Positions 12,213 to 64,000 of a stretch of DNA of 64,000 nucleotides are shown one piece after another; positions within the stretch are counted from its first letter, which is position 1; each line of letters begins with the position of its first letter. The DNA is from Patescibacteria group bacterium (GTDB lineage: Bacteria; Patescibacteriota; Patescibacteriia; PEXW01). Both the position numbers and the translations under genes were made by a program. The notes below the pieces were generated by a model. That model did no database searches. It saw only the letters and a program-made list of their open reading frames with translations, and was not told the DNA's origin. The stretch is from NCBI GenBank assembly GCA_038063455.1, contig JBBTVB010000001.1, positions 13,719 to 77,718 of the forward strand, written 5' to 3'.

Positions 12213-12225
12213 GGTTGTTTTTTTT
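12194..12225 (+). terminator. intrinsic terminator
   Basis: CAACCCT / AGGGTTG stem followed by T8. Confidence 0.8.
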
Positions 12226-12238
12226 AGGTAGTCTGGTA

Positions 12239-12468
12239 TGGTAGATATGCTTTGAAAATTGAGCAGGCAAACCGGTGCGCCCCTCGACAAGCTCGGGATC
12301 AGGCAATTCCGGTACGGTCCCGCCACGGTATCCCGGCCCAGCAATGGGCGCAGGGGAGTCCGACGCCTATCTTGCCTCCTGGCAGGATGAAGATAAATCC
12401 TTCGGGAAAAAGGTCGAACAAGGATGGAACCCGTCCTGCGACTGCCCTGATGTCGCAGCTATTTTCGT
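12239..12468 (+). promoter_or_regulatory. candidate cobalamin riboswitch: extended -10 promoter, aptamer at about 12255-12385, terminator-type platform at 12436-12468
   Basis: TGgTAGATA at 12239-12247. The core GGGATCAGGCAATTCCGGTACGGTCCCGCCACGGTA resembles the conserved GGGAA..GGTG..AA..CC....C.G..CCCGC..C.GTA block. A B12-box-like AGTCCGACGCCT is present. The hairpin CTGCGAC/GTCGCAG is followed by CTATTTT. The downstream genes fit B12 uptake. Confidence 0.55.
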
Positions 12469-26088: not shown

Positions 26089-28171
26089 TTGGTGGCGCAA
26101 TGCGTCGGCGACGTTTGACCAGCCAGGTCCCGCCGATCAGCAGTAGTACACTACAGCCGCTTACCAAGGCGCCCAAGCGAACGCTGGTTGGTTCGTAGCG
26201 GAAGCTGATCGTATGCGTGCCAGTGGGTACGCTTACGCCGAGGAAGCTGGTGTTGACCTTTAGTACCGGTGCTGTTTTTTCATCAATGCGGGCTTGCCAC
26301 CCCGGATACCACTGCAGGTTAGTAACGACAACGGTCGAACCCGTTGTTTTTACTTCAGCTTCCAGGTTCGTTGCTTCCTGCGTATGTATTCGAATAGTAA
26401 CCAACGCACTCGCATCTATAGCAGGCACAGCACCTGTCACCAGTGCCTCGGTGGCTGGATTAATATTCTGTATCGCCGCGGGGTTACTGCTAGCGACGAG
26501 TCGCTGCACTGCATGGATGGGCGGCACGGGGGCAATGTGCTCTGCCAATGTCCAACGGCCTTGCGTGTTAAGCGCGCGCCAATCTGGCGGCAGGGGCTGG
26601 AGGGTCAAAACCGTTTGTGTCCCGGTTACGGCAAGGACTTGGGTATTTGGTGATCGCACCACTAGCTGATTCTTTTTTACCAGTTGGCTGTTTGCACGCC
26701 ACAATTCTAAGTAGGACAGCGGGTAGAGCGAATCATACCCAAAGATTGTGGGTATGCCATAGGCCATGTACTGGCTGAGGTCGCTATCTCTCGACCAAAG
26801 TCGCCCAGTTGTCGTGGCTTGCGCGGTTGCTTCCAGGATAGGTGATGTGGGGTACAGGTCGGCCCGAGGCCCAAAGGGCAGAACGTGCTGCCATTGCCAA
26901 AGTCCAACCACAACTAGCGCAGCCAGTGCAATTCTGCCGCCCCAGTGCTGGAAGCGTTGGCCAAGTATTTCTGCACCCAGGCCAGCGAGAATTGCCGCAC
27001 CAAACGTCAAGAAAAAGGAAAAGCGCCATACGGTGGCTAAGGCAAGGGGAGGGATAGTTTGGCTAATGAGCAATCCCTTAAGTGTGGGAAACGCAATGAA
27101 TACACCAACGACGGCTACGGTGCTAGCTGCAACCCACCAAAGTCTTCGTCGCCAGGCTGCAAAAGAGAGCATGGCCAACAACAGCACCACGGGGCCAATG
27201 TACAAATTTCCTTCCAGGTAGTTTGCCGGACCACGGAAATTTTTTGCGTTCCCAAGAATGTTCGGGTCTGCCAGAGTGGCAAAGGCGCGGAGGTTGCGGG
27301 TTTCAAGATTAAACAGCACACTTGGCCGCACTAACTGCGACCAACGTGCAGGCGCTGGTTGCCGATACGCATAACGCGAAGCCTCTGCAATAGGCAGTAA
27401 TTGTATTGCACTCAAACCTATGCCAAGAACGAAAGCAATTGTAAAAAGGCCAAGACGTTTTTGCCATTGGTTGCGTTGCCAGAAGGCCACCGCCCAAATA
27501 CCGCTAACCAGCATAACCAGCAAGCCAATTTGCACTTGGCCACTAAAAAATGTCGCCATGGTAAGCAGGGCAATACCCACGACCCAACGCCAAGCCAGGG
27601 TACGGTGCAAACCTTGAATGGCCCACACAAGCCAGGGTAGCCATGCGGCGACCGCGCTCATGATGCTGGTGGTGCTCCACAATACAAATGGTGCACTTAA
27701 TACATACGCCAGACCAGCAAGGATACGCGATGACCGGCGCCAGCCCCAAGCTCCAGCGCACACGTACAGTCCAAGGCCACCAAGTAGGAATTGGCCGAGT
27801 ATGGAGAATGTAAAGCTCACCGCTGGTGGCAAAGACCAGAAGAGCGCCTTAAGTGGCGAGAGTACTGCTGCCTGGCCATTGGCAAAGAACGGTGTACCGG
27901 CAAAGATGAGCGGATTCCAAAGCGGAAGCTTGCCTTGCCGAATAGCCGCGTTCGTAAAGACGTGGTATGGGTAGGCTTGTACCAGTGAGTCATGTAACAA
28001 GCTGTGTTCTGGCCCATCTGTAGTGATAACCGGTAAAATCTTTGAAAGGTAGCCGACGCCTAAAGGCACATAGCCACGCAGGACGGGCCCAAACAGAAAG
28101 AGTGTGACTCCAGCAAAAATGATGACGGCAACTACGGGACCACGTCGAAAAAATGCAAGAATGCGTGACAT
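26078..28171 (-). CDS. YfhO-family membrane glycosyltransferase-like protein
   Basis: Polytopic protein with GKLPLWNPLIFAGTPFFANGQ and a C-terminal WYPGWQARIDEK...GTHTISFRYEP block typical of YfhO. Confidence 0.8.
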   Translation of the reverse strand: MSRILAFFRRGPVVAVIIFAGVTLFLFGPVLRGYVPLGVGYLSKILPVITTDGPEHSLLHDSLVQAYPYHVFTNAAIRQGKLPLWNPLIFAGTPFFANGQAAVLSPLKALFWSLPPAVSFTFSILGQFLLGGLGLYVCAGAWGWRRSSRILAGLAYVLSAPFVLWSTTSIMSAVAAWLPWLVWAIQGLHRTLAWRWVVGIALLTMATFFSGQVQIGLLVMLVSGIWAVAFWQRNQWQKRLGLFTIAFVLGIGLSAIQLLPIAEASRYAYRQPAPARWSQLVRPSVLFNLETRNLRAFATLADPNILGNAKNFRGPANYLEGNLYIGPVVLLLAMLSFAAWRRRLWWVAASTVAVVGVFIAFPTLKGLLISQTIPPLALATVWRFSFFLTFGAAILAGLGAEILGQRFQHWGGRIALAALVVVGLWQWQHVLPFGPRADLYPTSPILEATAQATTTGRLWSRDSDLSQYMAYGIPTIFGYDSLYPLSYLELWRANSQLVKKNQLVVRSPNTQVLAVTGTQTVLTLQPLPPDWRALNTQGRWTLAEHIAPVPPIHAVQRLVASSNPAAIQNINPATEALVTGAVPAIDASALVTIRIHTQEATNLEAEVKTTGSTVVVTNLQWYPGWQARIDEKTAPVLKVNTSFLGVSVPTGTHTISFRYEPTSVRLGALVSGCSVLLLIGGTWLVKRRRRIAPPTRA

Positions 28172-28395
28172 GCTATTAGCCTAGGGGATTTTGCTAACAA
28201 CGACAAACGCTCAGTCACCACGTTGTGGCCCCAATGGGTCGCCAGCTTTGATTCCTTCAATACGGGGTCCCCGCGAATGTGGTGCGCACCCTGAGCTTGT
28301 CGAAGGGGAGCACGCGTTCGTGGGGTAAAGCGAGGATTCGCACGCAACCCGAAGAACCACCTTCGGTGGGGCGAAGGGTGAAGAGCGAAACGAGC

Positions 28396-28619
28396 TGGCG
28401 GACCCGAAGGGAATCGTCACTGCGTGACCGGCTTGCTCCCGATGGGTCGCAAGCTTCGATTCCCTTCAGACAAACGATCAGTCACCACGTTATGGTGCCT
28501 GTTCGTTTGGCGGACCCGAAGGGAATCGTCACTGCGTGACCGGCTTGCTCCCGATGGGTCGCAAGCTTCGATTCCCTTCAGACAAACGATCAGTCACCAC
28601 GTTATGGTGCCTGTTCGTT
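28396..28619 (-). repeat. perfect tandem repeat, 2 x 112 bp; each unit ends (minus strand) in the last 20 nt of tRNA-Asp including CCA
   Basis: Units 28396-28507 and 28508-28619 are identical by my reading. Internal helix GAAGGGAATCG/CGATTCCCTTC plus smaller hairpins. Confidence 0.9.
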
Positions 28620-28728
28620 TGGCGGACCCGAAGGGAATCGAACCCTCGATCTTCTCCGTGACCCGCGCACCACACGCACTAGGCTCGTGTGTGCGGGGCA
28701 GGCAGGGAGACGGTGCAGCGCTGTCGGC
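28620..28728 (-). repeat. partial tRNA-Asp copy (anticodon stem to CCA) with an insertion of about 40 nt in the anticodon loop
   Basis: CACCGTCTCCCTG + CCTGCCCCGCACACACGAGCCTAGTGCGTGTGGTGCGCGG + GTCACGGAGAAGATCGAGGGTTCGATTCCCTTCGGGTCCGCCA. No acceptor or D-arm 5' part. Confidence 0.85.
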
Positions 28729-28804
28729 TGGCGGACCCGAAGGGAATCGAACCCTCGATCTTCTCCGTGACAGGGAGACGTGTTAACCGCTACACTACGG
28801 GTCC
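28729..28804 (-). tRNA. tRNA-Asp (anticodon GUC), CCA encoded
   Basis: GGACCCG-TA-GTGT-AGCGGTTA-ACAC-G-TCTCC-CTGTCAC-GGAGA-AGATC-GAGGG-TTCGATT-CCCTT-CGGGTCC-G-CCA folds as a canonical cloverleaf. Confidence 0.92.
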
Positions 28805-28877
28805 AACCGACAACGCTGCAAACTCTTTTGACGTGCTCGCCCCGTACCATCCGAGCACCAGCGAGGATTGGTGCGGG

Positions 28878-28900
28878 GTTAACCGCTACACTACGGGTCC
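28878..28900 (-). repeat. 23-nt copy of the tRNA-Asp 5' end (acceptor 5' strand plus D-arm)
   Basis: GGACCCGTAGTGTAGCGGTTAAC is identical to positions 1-23 of the gene 73 nt downstream (minus strand), then diverges. Confidence 0.85.
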
Positions 28901-28972
28901 AAAATTGAGCTAGCCGATTGTAACACGGCCTTTAGGACATGCCAAGGTCGCTAGTGTTGTATACTGTAACGT

Positions 28973-32908: not shown

Positions 32909-33312
32909 TGGTGGAGATGAGGGGTCTTGCACCCCTGTCTAGAATGCGGCGGGCAGGTGGTCTACAGGTGTAGGGCGTTCACGGGTGTTTCGATTGTGCC
33001 GCATGGAGCGCCCAAGCCCGGCAGAATCTAGTGGAAGTAATTTTCGGTTGCGTTGTTACCACCCCCGCGCAACCTACGCCTGGAATATAACACTCGCGAT
33101 TCCCGCGCCAGGTCGCGGGGCGAATGGGCTATCGGTTTTTAAGCGAACGCCGGAGCAAAGCTGGGAACTGTGAACGCGTTAGCGAACGCAGTCTTCACCT
33201 TGCTGACAATGCTATTGGCAGTTGTCGAGTTGTCCAGCAGTTTTACGCCGTGCCGAACGCGGGCGACCCGCACACCAACCGTAATGCAATCTATCAACTT
33301 CTGAACATCCCC
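32909..33312 (-). ncRNA. ssrA: tmRNA (ssrA)
   Basis: 5' GGGGATG pairs with 3' CATCTCC-A-CCA (G3:U70). T-arm-like GGGGTGCAAGACCCC. Internal tag frame 33219..33139 reads ANSIVSKVKTAFANAFTVPSFAPAFA*. Adjacent to smpB. Confidence 0.85.
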
Positions 33313-49970: not shown

Positions 49971-50402
49971 TACGAAAAAAAATTCACCCACCCGCATTGC
50001 TGCAGGTGGGTGGTTGTGCATTGCACTGTCCAGCCAGACCCCGGAGTAGGAATTCGCCTCTGGTGCCTTGAAATGAGCAAGAAGGACACCATTCACTGAC
50101 CCTAATTAAAGGGGTGAGTTTTCACCAAGTCGAGTGCTCGGCCAGCGGCTAGTACGATGACGAGGCCCCTGCATCCGTAGACGCAGGGCTTTGCTGGAGC
50201 GGCGATTATAACAAACTCGATCTCCGTATTCGCACTTCAGTGCAATGCTGGAAAGGGCTGGAATGTGGACTTTACCGAGTCCCGCCGCGTGATGTCAAGA
50301 AGAGACCAGGGGTGTTGACCAACTACCCAAAAAAGCCTAAGCTTTTTTGCCAATACAAAAAACTCTTTAACAACCATACAGAAAGCGAGGCACACATTGT
50401 TG

Positions 50403-51536
50403 ATGCATATTGGCGGTTCGAAGCGTGTGCTGCAGTCGGCATGCGTTGGCGAAAAAGTGTACCGGTTTCATTGCCGCTTACTTTTTTCGAGCAGCATTGC
50501 GGTCGTTACCGACATCAGCTACCCAGATTTTTCTGGGGCGCTACTCATGCCGCGGTGGAGCGAAAAAGGCAAGCACAATTACGTAGTATATTCTGACATA
50601 TACGCATTGCACCGTGCATTGGCTCATGGACAAGATACGTACGAGCAATCCACACAGGGCGAAATACCCCGTATGGCCAAAGCACTTACAGCGGCAACGA
50701 TTTTGCAAGGTATACAATTGGGTGTCAACACGCAGAATGCCGGAGCCTATCAGGATGAGCTTCTCACTGCCGCCGCTACAGCGATAGATGCAATTGGCCC
50801 AAACGCACGCCTGGTGGGGAAGCGTGAAGCCCTGGATCAACTTGCGGCTATTGCAAAAGGTCGGGACAGTCGCGGCCGCGTAAACCCTACAGTGTTACTC
50901 ACGCGCCTCGCCGCAGTTATCCGGCGTGTCGATGCGCGAGAACAAGATGCCACCAATATCGATGGCGTGTTTGCTTTTCGTCGTCAGATAGTACGAACCA
51001 CTATTCAGCTATTAGAAACCCAAGTAGCAGTGGCAAGGAGTTTTCTGGCACAAGTGTTGGCAAATTGGCCGCAGATTGCGTCACACAAGCGTCACCTCAT
51101 TGCAGGGCACGTAGATGCGATGGCCGAAGTATTCCGGACAATAGACATTCAACCCTTTCGGACAAACTTTGCATTTGCCGCTATCGAATATAATTTTGCC
51201 GCCAGCGCATTACGTAATGGCAACCCTGACACAGCTAAAGTGTTTCTGCAGCGTTCGGCCGCGGGCTTTGCTTTACGTAGTCTGCGGGCAGAGCTGGAAC
51301 GTGCGTACTTTTCGATCAGTCGGGTTGTGCGTTTGCGACAACCATTAGACACGAGCGCTACCCTATTGGTGCTGTCAGATTGCACGCAGGAATTAGAAAA
51401 TCTGTACACCGACAACTTACGCCAGTTTGATAAGCCAGTTGTTTCGGCAGGTATCAAGCATGCAGCGCAGCACCTTAGAGATGCGAAGTTGCACGATGCG
51501 TACACCACATTGCAACAGGTTGTTCGGCTAGTCTAG
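50403..51536 (+). CDS. hypothetical all-helical protein; start uncertain (50403 or 50547)
   Basis: Long ORF in high-GC core-like sequence; no family recognised. Confidence 0.55.
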   Translation: MHIGGSKRVLQSACVGEKVYRFHCRLLFSSSIAVVTDISYPDFSGALLMPRWSEKGKHNYVVYSDIYALHRALAHGQDTYEQSTQGEIPRMAKALTAATILQGIQLGVNTQNAGAYQDELLTAAATAIDAIGPNARLVGKREALDQLAAIAKGRDSRGRVNPTVLLTRLAAVIRRVDAREQDATNIDGVFAFRRQIVRTTIQLLETQVAVARSFLAQVLANWPQIASHKRHLIAGHVDAMAEVFRTIDIQPFRTNFAFAAIEYNFAASALRNGNPDTAKVFLQRSAAGFALRSLRAELERAYFSISRVVRLRQPLDTSATLLVLSDCTQELENLYTDNLRQFDKPVVSAGIKHAAQHLRDAKLHDAYTTLQQVVRLV

Positions 51537-51597
51537 CATTGGCCTTGACCGGCTGCCATATGTACAGTACAGTGAGGTTCTTGCATTTGCTCTTTCG

Positions 51598-51678
51598 GGT
51601 GTGTAGTTCAGGGGTAGAACGCTGACAAACGATTGGTCCGGAGTCAGAGGTCGCTGGTTCGAAACCGGCCACACCCAT
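51598..51678 (+). tRNA. aberrant tRNA-Arg(CCG)-like gene with a 16-nt anticodon loop (9 extra nt), no encoded CCA
   Basis: GGGTGTG-TA-GTTC-AGGGGTA-GAAC-G-CTGAC-[AAACGATTGGTCCGGA]-GTCAG-AGGTC-GCTGG-TTCGAAA-CCGGC-CACACCC-A. The 3' part of the loop (TCCGGA), the stem and the variable loop resemble tRNA-Arg(CCG). Confidence 0.55.
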
Positions 51679-51684
51679 TGGTTT

Positions 51685-51714
51685 GGACGTCTCACATGAG
51701 GCGTCCGTTTTTTT
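51685..51714 (+). terminator. intrinsic terminator after the tRNA-like gene
   Basis: GGACGTCTC / GAGGCGTCC stem followed by GTTTTTTT. Confidence 0.8.
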
Positions 51715-51716
51715 AT

Positions 51717-51750
51717 AAAAAAAGAGTCCCAACTATAGAAGTTGGGACTC
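51717..51750 (-). terminator. intrinsic terminator (minus strand) with no annotated gene feeding it
   Basis: GAGTCCCAAC / GTTGGGACTC 10-bp stem, followed by T7 on the minus strand. Confidence 0.7.
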
Positions 51751-52097
51751 GTACGTACACCTGCTGATCGGCAGAGCTGGGGTATGCTCAACTCCTAGAG
51801 CCCACGTTCAGGCAACACAAGCGACTCGCTCACATTCGTGCGATTTTAGCCTGCCCGAGTACAGACTAAAAAAATGTGAGATTTCGGAGACCGACAGTAT
51901 CAGCAACCAAGAAATGGACGTAACGTGACTAGAGGTTCCCAATGAAAAAGCGTTAAGAACTCGGACCCACGGTGTACGTAATAGAAAGAACAAATTGCAT
52001 GGCCAGCCTACCTGATTATACGCACTATGTCAACGCTGCTGGGGTGCGCCCCGTAGTTCTTGTCCGAATGCCAAAATCCTCGTAGAGTATAGGCACT

Positions 52098-53408
52098 ATG
52101 CCTGTATCCATGGAAACTCTGGTTTCGTTTGCCAAGCGTCGCGGCTTTATTTTCCCCACTGCCGAAATCTACGGTGGTCTGGGCGGCTTTTGGGATTTTG
52201 GCCCTTTGGGTGTGGAACTCAAGAACAATATTAAGCGGGAATGGTGGAAGCGCTTCGTGCAGCAGCGCAACGATGTGGTTGGTTTGGATTCGTCGATTGT
52301 GACTAACCCGAAGGTTTTTGAAAAAAGCGGCCACCTGGTGAATTTTCACGACGCCCTGGTCGAATGTAAAAAATGCCACCAGCGTTTCAAAGCGGATGAC
52401 CTTGGGCAAGAATGTACGAATTGTGGCGGGAAAGAATTTACCAATCCTGCCAACTTTAACTTGATGTTTAAGACGTTCATCGGCTCGACCGAGGAAAGCG
52501 TCTCTACAGCCTACCTTCGCCCCGAAACCGCGCAGGGCATCTTCGTCAATTTTCAAAACGTCCAGCAGAGCATGCGACTCAAGCTGCCCTTTGGCATTGG
52601 CCAAATTGGCAAAGCTTTCCGCAACGAAATTACGCCCGGTAACTTTATCTTCCGCTCGCGCGAGTTCGAGCAAATGGAGCTGGAGTTTTTCTGCAAACCC
52701 GGCGAAGACGACCAGTGGTTTGATTACTGGCGCAAAGAAAGTATGCAGTGGTTCTTGGACTTGGGCATAAAAAAAGACCATATCCGTTTCACCGACCAGC
52801 CCAAGTCCGAGCTAGCACACTACTCCAAAGCCACCACCGATATTGAATATCATTTCCCCTTCGAAAAAGGTTGGAGTGAACTCATGGGCGTTGCCAACCG
52901 TACCGACTTTGACCTTAAAGCGCACGGTCAGGTTCTGCGTGACGAAGAAGCCAAAGGGGACATCATCCCATTCTGCATCGAACCATCAGCAGGCGTGGAC
53001 CGCGCGGCACTCGCTTTTCTTATTGATGCCTACGAAGAAGTAGAGGGCGGCCGCTCTACCACCACGGAAGCCACCAAAGAAAAAGAAGTTGTGCTACGGT
53101 TGCACAAATCTCTTGCACCGATTAAAGTCGCCATTTTGCCGCTATCTAAAAGAGAGCCACTCGCAACAAAGGCCAAAGAAGTGCAAGCACTCATCAACAA
53201 AGACTTCACCACTTGGTACGACGACACGCAGTCTATTGGCCGCCGCTACCGCCGCCAGGATGAAATTGGCACACCGTATTGCGTGACCATCGACTTTGAA
53301 ACCGTGGAAAAAGACAACGCCGTTACCGTCCGCGACCGCGACACCATGGCGCAGGAGCGGGTAGCAATTGCGGAATTGCCGGGTATGTTGAAAGAGCAGT
53401 TTGCCTAA
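52098..53408 (+). CDS. glyQS: glycine--tRNA ligase (dimeric GlyQS type)
   Basis: SFAKRRGFIFPTAEIYGGLGGFWDFGPLG, FRNEITPGNFIFRSREFEQMELEFF and an anticodon-binding tail. Confidence 0.95.
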   Translation: MPVSMETLVSFAKRRGFIFPTAEIYGGLGGFWDFGPLGVELKNNIKREWWKRFVQQRNDVVGLDSSIVTNPKVFEKSGHLVNFHDALVECKKCHQRFKADDLGQECTNCGGKEFTNPANFNLMFKTFIGSTEESVSTAYLRPETAQGIFVNFQNVQQSMRLKLPFGIGQIGKAFRNEITPGNFIFRSREFEQMELEFFCKPGEDDQWFDYWRKESMQWFLDLGIKKDHIRFTDQPKSELAHYSKATTDIEYHFPFEKGWSELMGVANRTDFDLKAHGQVLRDEEAKGDIIPFCIEPSAGVDRAALAFLIDAYEEVEGGRSTTTEATKEKEVVLRLHKSLAPIKVAILPLSKREPLATKAKEVQALINKDFTTWYDDTQSIGRRYRRQDEIGTPYCVTIDFETVEKDNAVTVRDRDTMAQERVAIAELPGMLKEQFA

Positions 53409-59463: not shown

Positions 59464-61251
59464 ATGAAAATTGTTGAGATAAAAATTGATGGTTTTCGGG
59501 GTTTTAGTAATTTTTCGGTCACATCCGGTGATACCGGAGGATTTATAGTACTGGCCGGAAACAATGGCACAGGCAAATCGACTATTTTGGAAATTGCAGA
59601 GAGTTTAATTAATGGAAGAGCACATACAAATTTTAATGTTGAAGTACTTTCGGGCATTACAAAGGAAAAGACAGATTGGGAGGTTACTGTGGAGTTTAGC
59701 GATGATGATTTAGAATATCTTGCAAAATACTTGACCAGAACACAGCCCCAAACATTCTCAAATAGTTGGGAGTCTTTATTGCTATCTATGAAAAGTGATT
59801 TAAAAAATGAACATGGCAAACATTTTTCTACTATTTCTCTCAGCGTAAATAAGAATTTTCCGATTGGCAGGTCCGGGTTGACCCTTAACTATAATGGCAA
59901 TCCGAATGTTGTGCCACAGTGGTATTCAACTCTTGGCAGCTCTAATTTTTTTGCTGTTTATCTTAGATCCCACCAACAAATACAAGAAACTAACTTAACG
60001 ATTTTTAACGCTTCGGAAGATCAAAACACTCTTTCTCAAGTCGTAGGAGGCGAGAAAAGTCTTAGCCAACGTACTGCAATAGCCACAATTCAATTAGGAC
60101 AGATTCTCTCGCAACTAACTCTTAGTGAGATTTGGAATAATTATCGGTCAAATGGTGGTTCGTTTACGACAGTAAAAGAAGTCCTCGACCCTATAAATGA
60201 AGTCATTGAACCACTTGAGATGACATTCCAGGACGAGGGCTTACAAACGGGAAATATATTTTTTGTAATCCGAAACAAGAAAAGTGGTAAACAGTACTCA
60301 TTAAACTACGCGAGTTCTGGCGAAAGACACGTAATTGCTTTGGCGGCCACACTAATACAGTGGCAAAGACAAAAATTTAAAAGCATTATCTTAATTGATG
60401 AACCAGAAATTCATTTACACCCTGATTATATCTCGAAACTTGGCGCCTTGTTCTCAAAAGTTTTTGGTCCAGAAAATAGTTATACATGTATGGTAGCCAC
60501 ACATTCACCAGACTTTATTGCAACAAATCCAGACAGGGTCTTTCAAATTTCCGTAGACTCAAAGACAATTGTCCCAGTAGAAAACCTTCCGCAAAGAGTT
60601 GCTCTATTTGAAGCCCTAGGAAAAAAGTTCGATCTCTCATTTCTTATTAAAAGGATTGTTTGGGTTGAAGGTGTAACATCACCGAGTAAAGATCACCTAC
60701 AAGATCATGAGGTTTATCAATACTTGATTGACCCGAATAAAGTCACGACAGTGTTTTTACCAGCTGGTGTAGACCCCTCAAGAGACGGAAGTAAGGAAGG
60801 CGTACGCGCGGCAATGAAAGGTTCGAGCATCTTTTTAGAGTTTATTAAGTCAGTTTCAAGTATTGATAGTGGGCTAAATATTATAGCCTTGGTTGATAAA
60901 GATGATGATAAAGGTGCAATAAAGTCGCTGACAATAAAATATACACCTTTTACAAATTTAGAGAATATATTTTTATTGGATTTTCAAGCAGTAGCTGAAG
61001 CTGCGAGTTTAGAAGGAAAGAAACAATATACGCCCATTGAAATATCAAAAATTCTTGATAATATTACTGGTCAAACTTCAACTCAAACTATGAGCGTAAA
61101 TGGCAAGAAAGTGTTTGATAGTTTATATGGCACACTATTTACAATCCCAGATATTTCGCATAAAGAATTCCAAGAGCGTATCTTAAAAAAGATTTTAGTT
61201 GAAAGACTGCCACAAGAAGTTAAAGATTTGTTTGCTGAACTACGCGCATAA
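59464..61251 (+). CDS. ABC/SMC-like ATPase fused to a Toprim/DUF4435-like domain (OLD / PARIS-merge / AbiL-like defence candidate)
   Basis: Walker A GNNGTGKST, signature-like SSGER, Walker B IILIDEPEIHLHP, and THSPDF. C-terminal VWVEGVTS...ALVDKDDD (Toprim Glu and DxD). Strongly AT-rich by eye. Confidence 0.8.
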   Translation: MKIVEIKIDGFRGFSNFSVTSGDTGGFIVLAGNNGTGKSTILEIAESLINGRAHTNFNVEVLSGITKEKTDWEVTVEFSDDDLEYLAKYLTRTQPQTFSNSWESLLLSMKSDLKNEHGKHFSTISLSVNKNFPIGRSGLTLNYNGNPNVVPQWYSTLGSSNFFAVYLRSHQQIQETNLTIFNASEDQNTLSQVVGGEKSLSQRTAIATIQLGQILSQLTLSEIWNNYRSNGGSFTTVKEVLDPINEVIEPLEMTFQDEGLQTGNIFFVIRNKKSGKQYSLNYASSGERHVIALAATLIQWQRQKFKSIILIDEPEIHLHPDYISKLGALFSKVFGPENSYTCMVATHSPDFIATNPDRVFQISVDSKTIVPVENLPQRVALFEALGKKFDLSFLIKRIVWVEGVTSPSKDHLQDHEVYQYLIDPNKVTTVFLPAGVDPSRDGSKEGVRAAMKGSSIFLEFIKSVSSIDSGLNIIALVDKDDDKGAIKSLTIKYTPFTNLENIFLLDFQAVAEAASLEGKKQYTPIEISKILDNITGQTSTQTMSVNGKKVFDSLYGTLFTIPDISHKEFQERILKKILVERLPQEVKDLFAELRA

Positions 61252-61278
61252 AAATTTTGGCATCCCTCATCCTGCCTG

Positions 61279-61345
61279 GTAGACTAGGGGCATGACCCTT
61301 CTGCCCCGCACCAGTCGTCCCGCGGGGCGGGACTCCGGTGCGGGA
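61279..61345 (+). repeat. GTAG-type REP (61279-61307) overlapping a CACCAGTCG...CTCCGGTG palindrome (61304-61345)
   Basis: GTAGACTAGGGGCATGACCCTTCTGCCCC, then CCCCGCACCAGTCGTCCCGCGGGGCGGGACTCCGGTGCGGG. Relatives at 37898 and at 32607/32871. Confidence 0.65.
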
Positions 61346-61438
61346 TGTTGCGCCGCGAATTAGGGGTAATTTTTAATGCGGCACTCCACCATCTTGGGCT
61401 GTTTTGTTGCATTCATGCTAGTGCGATAGACTGTAGCC

Positions 61439-64000
61439 ATGACTCTTTTGCCATCCTTAAATGAAGCTCAAAAACAGGCGGTTACGCATGCGGCCGGGCC
61501 GCTATTGATAGTTGCTGGCGCGGGGACGGGCAAAACTACGGTCGTCACCCAGCGCATTGCCTGGCTTATTGCTGAGCAGAAGATTAAGCCGGACCATATC
61601 CTGGCCCTCACCTTTACGGACAAGGCTGCCGGGGAGCTGGAAGAGCGCGTAGACAAGTTGCTGCCCATGGGCTATGTGGACTTGTGGGTAAGCACGTTTC
61701 ACAGTTTTTGCGAGCGCATTTTGCGGGACCACGCCCTAGATATTGGCCTCACACCGGACTTCACTTTGTTGGACGAAACCGACCAGGCAATTTTGATGCG
61801 CGAGAATTTGGAGAAGTTTGAGCTCAACTACTACCGGCCGCTCGGGAATCCAACGAAGTTTGTTTCGAGTCTGATTAAACATTTCTCGCGCTGCAAAGAT
61901 GAGGCTATTCGGCCGGAAGAGTACATTGAATTTGCAAAGAATTTACAATTGGATCAGGACGCGGACCCCGCAATGCACAAAGGTAAAAAGCGTGTGCGGG
62001 GTGCGACTCCAGACAAAGCTGAAAGCGGGGAAGAGCAAGACGCACTGGAGTCGCAACGCATCAACGAAATTGCGAATGCCTACCATACCTACCAACAGCT
62101 CCTTTTTGAAAAAGGTGCGTTAGACTTTGGCGATCTTATTACCCAAGCTTTGTACCTGTTCCAACAGCGGCCGAAGATTTTAGAGCGCTACCGCAAGCAG
62201 TTTGAGTACATTCTGGTAGACGAGTTCCAAGACACCAACTGGGCGCAGTATGAATTGGTGAAGCTACTCGCCAGCCCGCAGAACAATTTGACCGTGGTGG
62301 GGGATGACGACCAGAGCATTTACAAGTTCCGCGGGGCCAGCGTGGCCAATATTCTGGCATTCAAGGCGGACTTTCCAAAAGCCGCGGAGGTTGTGCTCAC
62401 GGAAAACTATCGCTCCACGCAAAATATTTTGGACCTGGCGTACGCATTTATCCAGGCGAATAATCCGAACCGGCTGGAGGTGCAATTGGGGAGCAGTAAA
62501 GCTGTAAAGCCAGAGAGCCGTAAGGGCAAGAAGGGCTCTAAAGCTTTACCGCTCTATAGCTCTACGGCTATCAGTAAAAAACTTGTTGCTCAAGAGAAAG
62601 GCGCTGGAACCATAGAGTATTCCGTCGCACCGATCCTGGAACAAGAAGCGACGGGCGTAGTGGAAAAAATTATCGAGCTCAAGAAAAAGAAAGGCACGTC
62701 GTACAACGACTTTGCCATTCTGGTGCGCGCTAATGATTCGGCCCAACCGTTCTTGCAGCGTCTACGCGCCGCGGACGTTCCGTTCCAGTTTGTGGCCACG
62801 GCGGGCCTATACCGCCAGCCGATTGTGCTGGACATTCTCAACTACCTCAAGCTGCTGGATAACTTCCACGAGAGTGCCAGCCTGTACCGCATTCTCACTT
62901 TGCCTTCGCTCGGCATTCCGCTGCAGGATGTAATGACCATGATGGCCACGGCGCGACGGGAGACGAAGTCGTTGTTTGAAGTGTCTAAGAATATCCGGGC
63001 TTTACCTGGTATGAAGCCGGAAACCATTACCGCCGTGGAAAAATTGCATGGCTGGCTGGAGGCGCACGGACAACTGGCCCGCACGCAGCCGGTGGGGGAA
63101 GTCGCCCTCAAATTTTTGGAAGACTCGGGTTTGATGAAGCAGCTTACCAGCTCTACGGATGCCGACCATTTGGAAGTGGTCAACTACATGAACCAGCTCT
63201 TCCAGGTGTTTCAAGGTTTCCAAACGCGGCACGACGATCCGACCGTGACGAATTTCTTGCACGAGTTGGCGTTTGCCCAGGACGCTGGGGACAGCGGCAG
63301 TCTGCGGCCGCCGGAGTGGGAGCAGGGGCCGGAGGCGGTAAAGGTAATGACCATTCACAGTGCCAAAGGCTTGGAGTTTCCGTACGTGTTTATTGCGAAC
63401 CTCGTTGATAAACGTTTCCCAACAATAGAGCGGCGCGACGCCATTGCACTGCCAGACGCCCTAGTGCGCGAAAAGCTGCCTGAAGGGGACTGGCACTTGC
63501 AGGAAGAGCGGCGGCTCATGTACGTAGCAATTACCCGCGCCAAGCAAGGCGTGTTCTTCACGGCGGCCGAGGACTATGGCGGTGCACGCAAGAAAAAACC
63601 TTCGCGGTTTATTGAAGAGCTTGGACTCAAAGCCAAACCCTTCAAGCTCAAAGGGGGATTGCTCGATAGGCCGAAAGCTCCGGCTCGTGAAGAGAACGAT
63701 GCGGATGTACTCCGCAAAGCCCTGCCGCCGTATTTCAGCTTCACGCAGCTGAAGGCGTTTGAAAAATGCCCAAAGCAGTATGCGTTCGCGCACTTGCTCA
63801 AAATTCCCGTGCCTGGCCAGGCGACGTTGAGTTTTGGCCAGACCGTTCATAACACTTTGCTCAACTTCTACAAGCTGGCGCGGGAGCGGGGGAGTGCGGG
63901 GCAAGCCGATTTGTTCAGGAAGAAAGATACGGTCACTGTTGGCCCACTGGTGACGTGGTCAGATTTAATCACGATTTACCAAGCCGCGTGGATAGACCAG
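61439..64000 (+). CDS. UvrD/PcrA/AddA-type DNA helicase with the start of a C-terminal PD-(D/E)XK nuclease-like region (3' partial)
   Basis: Missing from the ORF track because it has no stop in the window. I translated AGAGTGKTT (Walker A), VGDDDQSIYKFRGA, TIHSAKGLEF, MYVAITRAK, and later FTQLKAFEKCPKQYAF. The frame is open through 64000. Confidence 0.9.
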   Translation, partial: MTLLPSLNEAQKQAVTHAAGPLLIVAGAGTGKTTVVTQRIAWLIAEQKIKPDHILALTFTDKAAGELEERVDKLLPMGYVDLWVSTFHSFCERILRDHALDIGLTPDFTLLDETDQAILMRENLEKFELNYYRPLGNPTKFVSSLIKHFSRCKDEAIRPEEYIEFAKNLQLDQDADPAMHKGKKRVRGATPDKAESGEEQDALESQRINEIANAYHTYQQLLFEKGALDFGDLITQALYLFQQRPKILERYRKQFEYILVDEFQDTNWAQYELVKLLASPQNNLTVVGDDDQSIYKFRGASVANILAFKADFPKAAEVVLTENYRSTQNILDLAYAFIQANNPNRLEVQLGSSKAVKPESRKGKKGSKALPLYSSTAISKKLVAQEKGAGTIEYSVAPILEQEATGVVEKIIELKKKKGTSYNDFAILVRANDSAQPFLQRLRAADVPFQFVATAGLYRQPIVLDILNYLKLLDNFHESASLYRILTLPSLGIPLQDVMTMMATARRETKSLFEVSKNIRALPGMKPETITAVEKLHGWLEAHGQLARTQPVGEVALKFLEDSGLMKQLTSSTDADHLEVVNYMNQLFQVFQGFQTRHDDPTVTNFLHELAFAQDAGDSGSLRPPEWEQGPEAVKVMTIHSAKGLEFPYVFIANLVDKRFPTIERRDAIALPDALVREKLPEGDWHLQEERRLMYVAITRAKQGVFFTAAEDYGGARKKKPSRFIEELGLKAKPFKLKGGLLDRPKAPAREENDADVLRKALPPYFSFTQLKAFEKCPKQYAFAHLLKIPVPGQATLSFGQTVHNTLLNFYKLARERGSAGQADLFRKKDTVTVGPLVTWSDLITIYQAAWIDQ

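Follow-up and report, generated by a model that had tools for sequence, protein, structure and literature searches.

Can an RNA gene that keeps the complete tRNA cloverleaf and carries a 16-nt anticodon loop still decode, and if it cannot, what might it do instead? The question is raised by a locus in a 64,000-nt stretch of DNA from a Patescibacteria group bacterium; this whole stretch is referred to below as the window. An earlier note had described there a tRNA-Arg(CCG)-like gene with nine extra nucleotides in the anticodon loop, and had offered four options: a pseudogene, a micro-intron or otherwise processed tRNA, an expanded-loop decoder, and a tRNA-like regulatory or decoy RNA. A tRNA-like, non-decoding RNA was found to fit the comparative data best. 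We hold with moderate confidence that the window gene is a functional non-decoding tRNA mimic, putatively transcribed independently, within a lineage-specific variable cassette.

The tRNA-like gene and its signals

ARAGORN and the Rfam tRNA model agreed on a tRNA-like gene at 51597-51677 on the plus strand, with an Rfam score of 52.5 bits (gathering score 29; E = 2e-8 for the window). The gene seen earlier was thereby recovered, with a start one base 5′ of the 51598-51678 given at the time. The gene and its signals are as follows.

51545-51573, plus strand: promoter-like site TTGACC-17-TACAGT, ending 23 nt 5′ of the gene; implied leader of ~16 nt
51597-51677, plus strand: tRNA-shaped RNA gene of 81 nt, discriminator A at 51677, CCA not encoded
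51627-51635, plus strand: nine extra nucleotides, AAACGATTG, on the 5′ side of the anticodon loop; placement ambiguous by one base
51636-51642, plus strand: Arg(CCG)-like 7-nt loop remnant GTCCGGA, with U33, C34 C35 G36, G37 and A38
51684-51714, plus strand: intrinsic terminator GGACGTCTC-ACAT-GAGGCGTCC followed by a T run, homologous to the cassette-ending hairpin of all relatives

A scripted parse reproduced the anatomy originally described, with every stem fully paired: 7/7 pairs in the acceptor stem, 4/4 in the D stem (D loop AGGGGTA), 5/5 in the anticodon stem (CTGAC/GTCAG), and 5/5 in the T arm (GCTGG-TTCGAAA-CCGGC), with a variable loop of AGGTC. The elbow nucleotides are present in both the D loop (G18 G19) and the T loop (TTCGAAA). 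Free-energy folding of the RNA alone returned the same cloverleaf, and also contained the weak 2-bp extension inside the anticodon loop that had been proposed as an alternative fold. The body is that of an elongator tRNA, with its 7-bp acceptor stem, its D arm containing G18 G19 and its T-loop consensus, and the anticodon loop is not, since 16 nt (AAACGATTGGTCCGGA, 51627-51642) stand in place of a 7-nt loop with U33 and a purine at position 37. The gene thus has the character of a pseudo-tRNA, in which the tRNA fold is kept and appears incompatible with decoding. The 3′ flank reads TTGGTT in place of an encoded CCA; CCA is encoded by both the tRNA-Asp (28729-28804, minus strand), the sole bona fide tRNA of the window, and the tmRNA (32909-33312, minus strand).

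The strong terminator noted earlier was found as a hairpin at 51684-51707 with a T run, 6 nt downstream of the gene. Over the tRNA 3′ half and the terminator, blastn aligned the window with a related locus (L007) at 76% identity. With a promoter-like site on its 5′ side and a terminator hairpin on its 3′ side, the gene therefore looks like a stand-alone transcription unit, as judged from these motifs. The cassette terminator was also considered as a dispersed REP-like repeat, which was rejected because it is not dispersed within the window. Apart from the tRNA model, Rfam had no match in 51300-52200, T-boxes and riboswitches included.

Likeness to tRNA-Arg(CCG)

The resemblance of the anticodon arm to tRNA-Arg(CCG) stood up well. 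When the nine nucleotides were left out, 20/23 positions (position 26, the anticodon arm and the variable loop) were identical to E. coli tRNA-Arg(CCG), the reference sequence of which was verified against 5,426 genomes. Shared with this tRNA, the product of argX, are position 26, the anticodon stem, the segment U33-CCG-G37-A38 and the variable loop AGGUC, and the discriminator of the window gene is a purine. C35 and G36 lie within the 3′ seven nucleotides of the loop, in a non-canonical loop geometry. Unlike tRNA-Arg(CCG), the window gene has nine extra loop nucleotides, does not encode CCA, and carries a U (in our numbering) at D-loop position 20, where Arg tRNAs have A20, a major determinant of recognition by ArgRS in E. 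coli. Over 43 fixed positions, its body is 63% identical to the E. coli Arg tRNA, which is the background level, and the tRNA-Asp of the window gives the same score. The proposal of a tRNA-Arg with an insert therefore holds for the arm and not for the body, which is not Arg-specific.

The window copy apparently derives from an anticodon arm of the tRNA-Arg(CCG) type, which a 9-nt insertion 5′ of U33 has disabled. The nearly intact state of this arm suggests either that the insertion is recent or that an Arg function persists, and fits a recent event or continued Arg function better than it fits an arm that has long been free. CGG accounts for 29% of the Arg codons in the window genes (67/228), and is the second most used of them. 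It accounts for 27% in two related loci, L003 and L007, which have no CCG-type gene at the corresponding slot, and a CGG-decoding tRNA must therefore be encoded elsewhere in those genomes. By parsimony, the present genome likewise decodes CGG with a tRNA encoded elsewhere.

Searches for further copies gave little. The 21-mer spanning the T arm and acceptor stem had no exact match in the genome contigs, and the loop and scaffold patterns had none in viral contigs. BLAST of the region against phages returned nothing at 1e-5 and merely generic matches of 72% to phage tRNA-Ile at E ~0.06, and a search of E. coli genomes found nothing. These searches assigned no isotype to the body. A diverged tandem duplication was rejected as the source of the insert, the by-hand alignment with the preceding 10 nt giving 5/10 matches, which is not significant. 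An antisense guide was rejected as well: the loop, taken as its reverse complement, matches nowhere else in the window when up to 3 mismatches are allowed, and the longest stretches of complementarity or identity for all the arms measure 8-12 nt, the chance level.

The same slot in related lineages

Syntenic loci of relatives were fetched via GlyRS, and the identities given below are those of GlyRS to the window. The database twin of the window GlyRS (MEK7569873.1) and the nearest relatives by GlyRS are annotated as Patescibacteria (CPR) metagenome-assembled genomes (MAGs) near Kerfeldbacteria. Gene order is kept among them: a ClpB-like gene, a ~390-aa protein, an intergenic cassette and glyS. 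The slot directly upstream of glyS holds one to three differing tRNA-like genes in each of seven related lineages; such genes are present in the cassette of each lineage whose GlyRS is at least 75% identical, and they differ between lineages.

L012 and L013 (GlyRS 93%): 78 nt, 6-bp anticodon stem, 10-nt loop containing AUCCGAC
L001 (92%): D-armless form, recognised by eye; the contig breaks just upstream
L008 and L014 (92%): three genes in tandem
First gene of L008/L014: loop CACAGGA with A33, two acceptor mismatches
Second gene of L008/L014: 3-bp anticodon stem plus 14 nt
Third gene of L008/L014: 6-nt loop UAUCAA
L003-L006 and L010 (92%): 72 nt, loop AUCUAUU, that is, anticodon CUA with U37
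L007, L009 and L011 (83%): 70 nt, 6-nt loop UUGUUG
L015 (75%): 94 nt, 8-bp anticodon stem plus 21-nt loop

This comparison of orthologous loci did not bear out the picture of an isolated oddity, since the slot of the relatives holds varied look-alikes with aberrant anticodon loops. A non-canonical anticodon loop was found in 9/9 look-alikes at the slot, and none has a canonical sense-decoding loop; among the relatives, the loops are of 5-6, 10-12 or ~27 nt, have A33, or have CUA with U37. CCA is encoded in 0/9. Scripted parsing of eight copies showed full pairing of the D and T stems in all of them, and no mismatch in 7/8 anticodon stems and 6/8 acceptor stems. Two outgroup loci (L016 and L017, ~70% GlyRS identity) have no tRNA-like gene at the slot. 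A close relative of the window copy was not found among the fetched loci, the best body identities being 63-70%. The gene of the closest lineage (L012) was called Arg(CCG) with extra loop nucleotides by ARAGORN.

The body of the L003 type is tRNA-Gly-like, being 79% identical to E. coli tRNA-Gly(GCC), with G1-C72, C2-G71 and U73, and its occurrence beside glyS is notable. This Gly-bodied gene with CUA and U37 (L003 5277-5348; identical in L004, L005, L006 and L010) was labelled tRNA-Pyl by ARAGORN. TAG serves as a stop codon in the L003-type loci, which makes efficient suppression by the CUA look-alike unlikely.

Several further elements were observed in the cassettes. A conserved structured leader, confined to one type of cassette, lies 5′ of the tRNA-like genes in four loci (L003 5191-5262; L007 5771-5842; L008 4196-4266; L014 3595-3665), and consists of a P1 helix (CCAGCGG/CCGCTGG), invariant AAAGCGAAAT and AGTAGT, and an inner helix with some covariation; it has no Rfam match and is absent from the window. 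An ORF of 142-149 aa, with an apparent promoter-like site and terminator of its own, lies between the tRNA-like gene and glyS in L003 (5482-5910) and in L004-L006. It matched no family, and is absent from the window and L007. Two independent assemblies break within 170 nt 5′ of glyS, in or beside the cassette (L001 1-167; L002 1-85), which is consistent with strain heterogeneity at the slot. The L002 contig breaks nearer glyS than L001 does, and keeps only the last bases of the cassette. Positions 22-92 of L001, the D-armless form, fold as a tRNA-like RNA that was called by neither ARAGORN nor Rfam.

Selection on the relatives' copies

The three tRNA-like genes of L008 and L014 differ at 1 position in 218 nt, which is the unpaired position 26, and the glyS genes of the same loci have diverged by 9.4% at third positions and 12% at four-fold sites; tested against the third-position divergence, the conservation has P ~1e-8. 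Between the L003 gene and the third gene of L008, four-fold sites have diverged by 0.50, near saturation, and 0/43 fixed body positions differ (P ~1e-13). In the anticodon arm and variable loop of the same pair, 14/22 positions differ, with both stems 5/5 paired, and the contrast between body and arm is significant (Fisher P = 8e-8). The L012 gene and the second gene of L008 have bodies that are 88% identical and anticodon arms that are unrelated (P ~7e-8).

These substitution patterns show the relatives' copies to be under purifying selection, with bodies kept and anticodon arms free. In real tRNAs, the anticodon arm is the most strongly conserved part. A frozen body with a drifting yet helical arm is, on the evidence of at least one ortholog pair, the reverse of what ordinary tRNAs display, and from this inverse pattern it follows that the relatives' RNAs probably work through the acceptor/D/T body and need the anticodon arm only as a helix. 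The option of a neutral pseudogene is contradicted by purifying selection for the relatives' copies, and is possible for the window copy.

Neighbourhood of the cassette

The features flanking the tRNA-like gene in the window, and the ATPase gene further downstream, are listed below.

50397-51536, plus strand: upstream neighbour, a 379-aa protein, fast-evolving, with a grouping discordant with GlyRS
51724-51750, minus strand: convergent terminator-like hairpin, for a minus-strand transcript
51751-52039, minus strand: window-specific insert of ~290 nt, between the cassette terminator and the glyS promoter
52040-52097, plus strand: second hairpin and conserved glyS promoter region (TTCTTGTCC ... 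TAGAGT)
52098-53408, plus strand: glyS, dimeric-type glycine--tRNA ligase, the conserved anchor of the locus
59464-61251, plus strand: 595-aa ABC-type ATPase with PtuA/AriA/OLD/ATPase-Toprim-like matches

The 379-aa protein had no match in Pfam, NCBIfam, PADLOC or PDB, homologue searches with it returned almost only itself, and its AF2 model (pLDDT 45) was unusable. Its identity is 48% with the L012 homologue and 27-34% with the others, against 75-93% for GlyRS. The ~390-aa proteins of L003, L007 and L008 are 61-71% identical to one another, and identity between this group and that of the window and L012 is ~30%, where GlyRS gives 92-95%. Given this divergence and the discordance with GlyRS, the cassette and the gene for this protein appear to form a single variable block that recombines, and the versions found in L003-L017 suggest old allelic types exchanged by recombination. 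The protein also occurs in the outgroups, which have no cassette, and is therefore not an obligate partner.

The window-specific insert has no similarity to the intergenic regions of the relatives, and its ORFs are short, none of them convincing. A fold z-score of -3.1 was obtained for 51724-52012 on the minus strand, which makes this segment a candidate for a structured small RNA transcribed from that strand. In front of glyS, a TTGTCC -35-like box is followed by a -10 hexamer resembling that of the tRNA-like gene, TAGAGT in the window or TACAGT in the relatives, and the glyS mRNA is nearly leaderless.

A link to the Toprim/ABC defence-type gene 8 kb away, which had been put forward in favour of a decoy RNA, was not supported. 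The ATPase gene is separated from the tRNA-like gene by housekeeping genes, and is absent in L001, the only relative locus that reaches past RmuC, where an ABC-transporter pair is found instead. The ATPase lies in a low-GC stretch (43% over 60001-62000), and its region is probably a small defence island.

Comparison with known systems

The closest functional analogue would be tRNA-Other of Bacillus cereus, a pseudo-tRNA that serves as a structural element of a longer regulatory RNA (PMC3399842). The B. cereus RNA is tRNA-shaped and non-translational, as the RNAs described here probably are, and both lie beside a variable region; in relatives L003, L007, L008, L012 and L015, the tRNA-like module is likewise flanked by ~85-130 nt of leader or trailer. 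The two differ in that they come from different phyla and have no sequence relation, and in that a family is found here, with one to three copies per locus, always 5′ of glyS, and with an anticodon arm that is demonstrably unconstrained. The window copy also differs in standing alone between promoter and terminator, without a long leader.

Anticodon loops longer than 7 nt are shared with the frameshift suppressors SufB2 and SufJ and the yeast mitochondrial tRNA-Thr(UAG). These have one extra nucleotide (8-nt loops) and still decode, whereas the loop here has 16 nt and the relatives at the locus have loops of 5-6 and ~27 nt. Expanded-loop suppressors have 8-nt, at most 9-10-nt, loops in which the anticodon stack is kept, a range that the 16 nt of the window gene exceed. 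A review of natural non-canonical tRNAs gives the anticodon loop as 7 nt, and the one enlarged loop that a term search located in it has 8 nt (PMC7609411).

Group I introns, which splice themselves as ribozymes, measure a few hundred nucleotides. They are common in the anticodon loops of Patescibacteria tRNAs, where the last base is U in the 5′ exon and G in the intron (PMC13011429). Phylum and target are thus the same as here; the window insert, unlike these introns, has 9 nt and no match to an intron model. The earlier judgement that nine nucleotides are too few for a group I intron was upheld, with no Intron_gpI match even at E <= 5, as was the judgement that they are too few for a bulge-helix-bulge intron: by inspection, they leave no room for a 4-bp helix with a 3-nt bulge at each end, and the predicted fold shows just the 2-bp extension.

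The non-proteinogenic tRNA-Gly species of staphylococci donate glycine to the cell wall; their Gly anticodon loop is normal, and GlyRS charges them. They resemble the present family as extra tRNA-type genes for a non-ribosomal role, and the subfamily formed by L003 and the third gene of L008 is Gly-bodied and lies beside glyS. Unlike them, the genes at this locus have lost the anticodon, and the window copy is without Gly features.

A proposed non-decoding tRNA mimic and the alternatives

The best-supported reading of the family as a whole is that of lineage-specific, non-decoding RNAs with a tRNA body, of the pseudo-tRNA or tRNA-mimic kind. We infer that the tRNA-body RNA is expressed, processed and lost to decoding. 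A small, independently transcribed RNA would fold into an acceptor stem, D and T arms with an elbow, and a helical anticodon arm, and would not decode. Its transcript would mature in the manner of a tRNA precursor, with RNase P cutting at the 5′ end and trimming at the 3′ end, and CCA may or may not be added to the trimmed RNA. The body (acceptor, T arm and elbow) would mimic tRNA, and might bind, titrate or serve a tRNA-recognising protein; alternatively, the RNA may provide a regulatory RNA with a stable structural module. Of the anticodon arm, no more than a helix would be required.

A young pseudogene or relic is a possible, though unlikely, account of the window copy: a duplicated tRNA-Arg(CCG)-type gene, or a recombinant assembled from pieces of tRNA, would have entered a slot prone to recombination and been disabled by the 9-nt insertion, and would be as yet undecayed and functionless. 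The arm that is still 20/23 identical to E. coli tRNA-Arg(CCG) is as expected of a recent insertion, the slot is a clear turnover hot spot, the array of tRNA-Asp fragments in the same window indicates that tRNA-gene rearrangement occurs in this genome, and no ortholog of the window copy was found among the fetched loci in which constraint could be seen. A relic sits poorly with the perfect pairing of all stems and with the intact promoter-like site and terminator. The recurrence of non-canonical loops in all nine slot look-alikes is unlike random decay; other defects are few (two copies have 1-2 mismatches in the acceptor stem, and one lacks a D arm), and selection on the relatives' copies is strong and purifying. 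The near-exact match of the 3′ seven nucleotides, stem and variable loop to tRNA-Arg(CCG) also speaks for a working tRNA-Arg(CCG), from which the nine nucleotides would be removed by short-insert processing, or in which they would be looped out on the 5′ side while U33-CCG-G37-A38 keeps its normal stacking and reads CGG. This reading, which we regard as improbable, gains from the rank of CGG as the second most used Arg codon, from the ARAGORN call of the L012 gene as Arg(CCG) with extra loop nucleotides, and from the precedent of the frameshift suppressor SufJ, which reportedly tolerates one inserted nucleotide on the 5′ side of its anticodon stem-loop. Natural and engineered functional loops, however, reach 8-10 nt, compared with 16 nt here; to our knowledge, bacteria have no endonuclease for short tRNA inserts, and nine nucleotides can form neither a bulge-helix-bulge motif nor a group I intron. 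The lack of A20 and of an encoded CCA sets the gene apart from the real tRNA of the window, and relatives with equal CGG use have dispensed with the slot or replaced its content.

The frequency of group I introns in the anticodon loops of Patescibacteria tRNAs (PMC13011429) also raises the possibility of a mobile-element scar, that is, a loop left by an integrase crossover or by the imprecise loss of a group I intron. A tRNA-Asp fragment with a ~40-nt insert ending in G (28620-28712, minus strand) and a Y1 transposase gene 3′ of glyS in L012 point the same way. The variable segment that distinguishes L003 from the third gene of L008 is nevertheless bounded on both sides, with an identical 3′ half, and is not the 3′-half replacement of an integrase; the stems differ as well, and loops of 5-6 nt cannot be intron scars. 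No integrase was found near the locus or beside the tRNA-Asp fragment array, and there were no matches in viral contigs or phage records. A scar is therefore rated as highly improbable. An assembly or sequencing artefact is more improbable still, even though the source is a MAG and the contigs of two relatives break just 5′ of glyS, as in a region that is hard to assemble. A 9-nt insertion within an otherwise perfect cloverleaf is an atypical error, and aberrant loops recur across independent assemblies, projects and samples, some of them identical in 2-5 assemblies.

Taken further, the reading as a non-decoding tRNA mimic would point to an undescribed class of RNA, with a conserved scaffold and a free or swappable anticodon arm, that acts as decoys or adaptors from a recombining cassette with a hypervariable protein beside glyS; we consider this extension improbable. 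If it were true, the RNAs could be decoys for tRNA-targeting toxins, or tuners of an aminoacyl-tRNA synthetase or transferase, and would be a new, RNA-based level at which conflict or regulation operates in ultra-small bacteria. In the literature searched, no publication joins Patescibacteria with tRNA-like RNAs. The combination of a frozen body and a free helical arm may serve as a sequence signature of a tRNA-shaped RNA outside decoding, and in a phylum with tiny genomes each retained gene is informative. The locus offers a concrete and testable way to approach tRNA mimicry outside translation in bacteria that have not been cultivated: by which protein, if any, is the body read, and is the RNA charged? 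For annotation, the Arg, Val, Pyl, Leu and Trp tRNA calls at this locus are misleading, and the CUA copy in particular is no evidence of stop-codon recoding.

Other observations in the window

A sub-threshold match to the cobalamin riboswitch aptamer was seen at 12222-12388 on the plus strand (23.4 bits against a gathering score of 31.5; E = 0.07).

The region 28150-28910 on the minus strand contains an array of tRNA-Asp fragments around the intact tRNA-Asp(GTC). A 5′ fragment lies 71 nt upstream of the intact gene, and two 112-nt units, 100% identical, each end in the last 21 nt of tRNA-Asp. The 3′ fragment at 28620-28712, which runs from G34 to CCA, is preceded by CGTCTCCCTG and a hairpin insert of ~40 nt ending in G. 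This insert lies after U33/G34, and is possibly the remnant of a group I intron. No integrase was found near the array.

ARAGORN did not call the tmRNA at 32909-33312 (minus strand; Rfam 79.7 bits). A long insertion interrupts its tag-coding region, and its tag apparently ends in ...APAFA.
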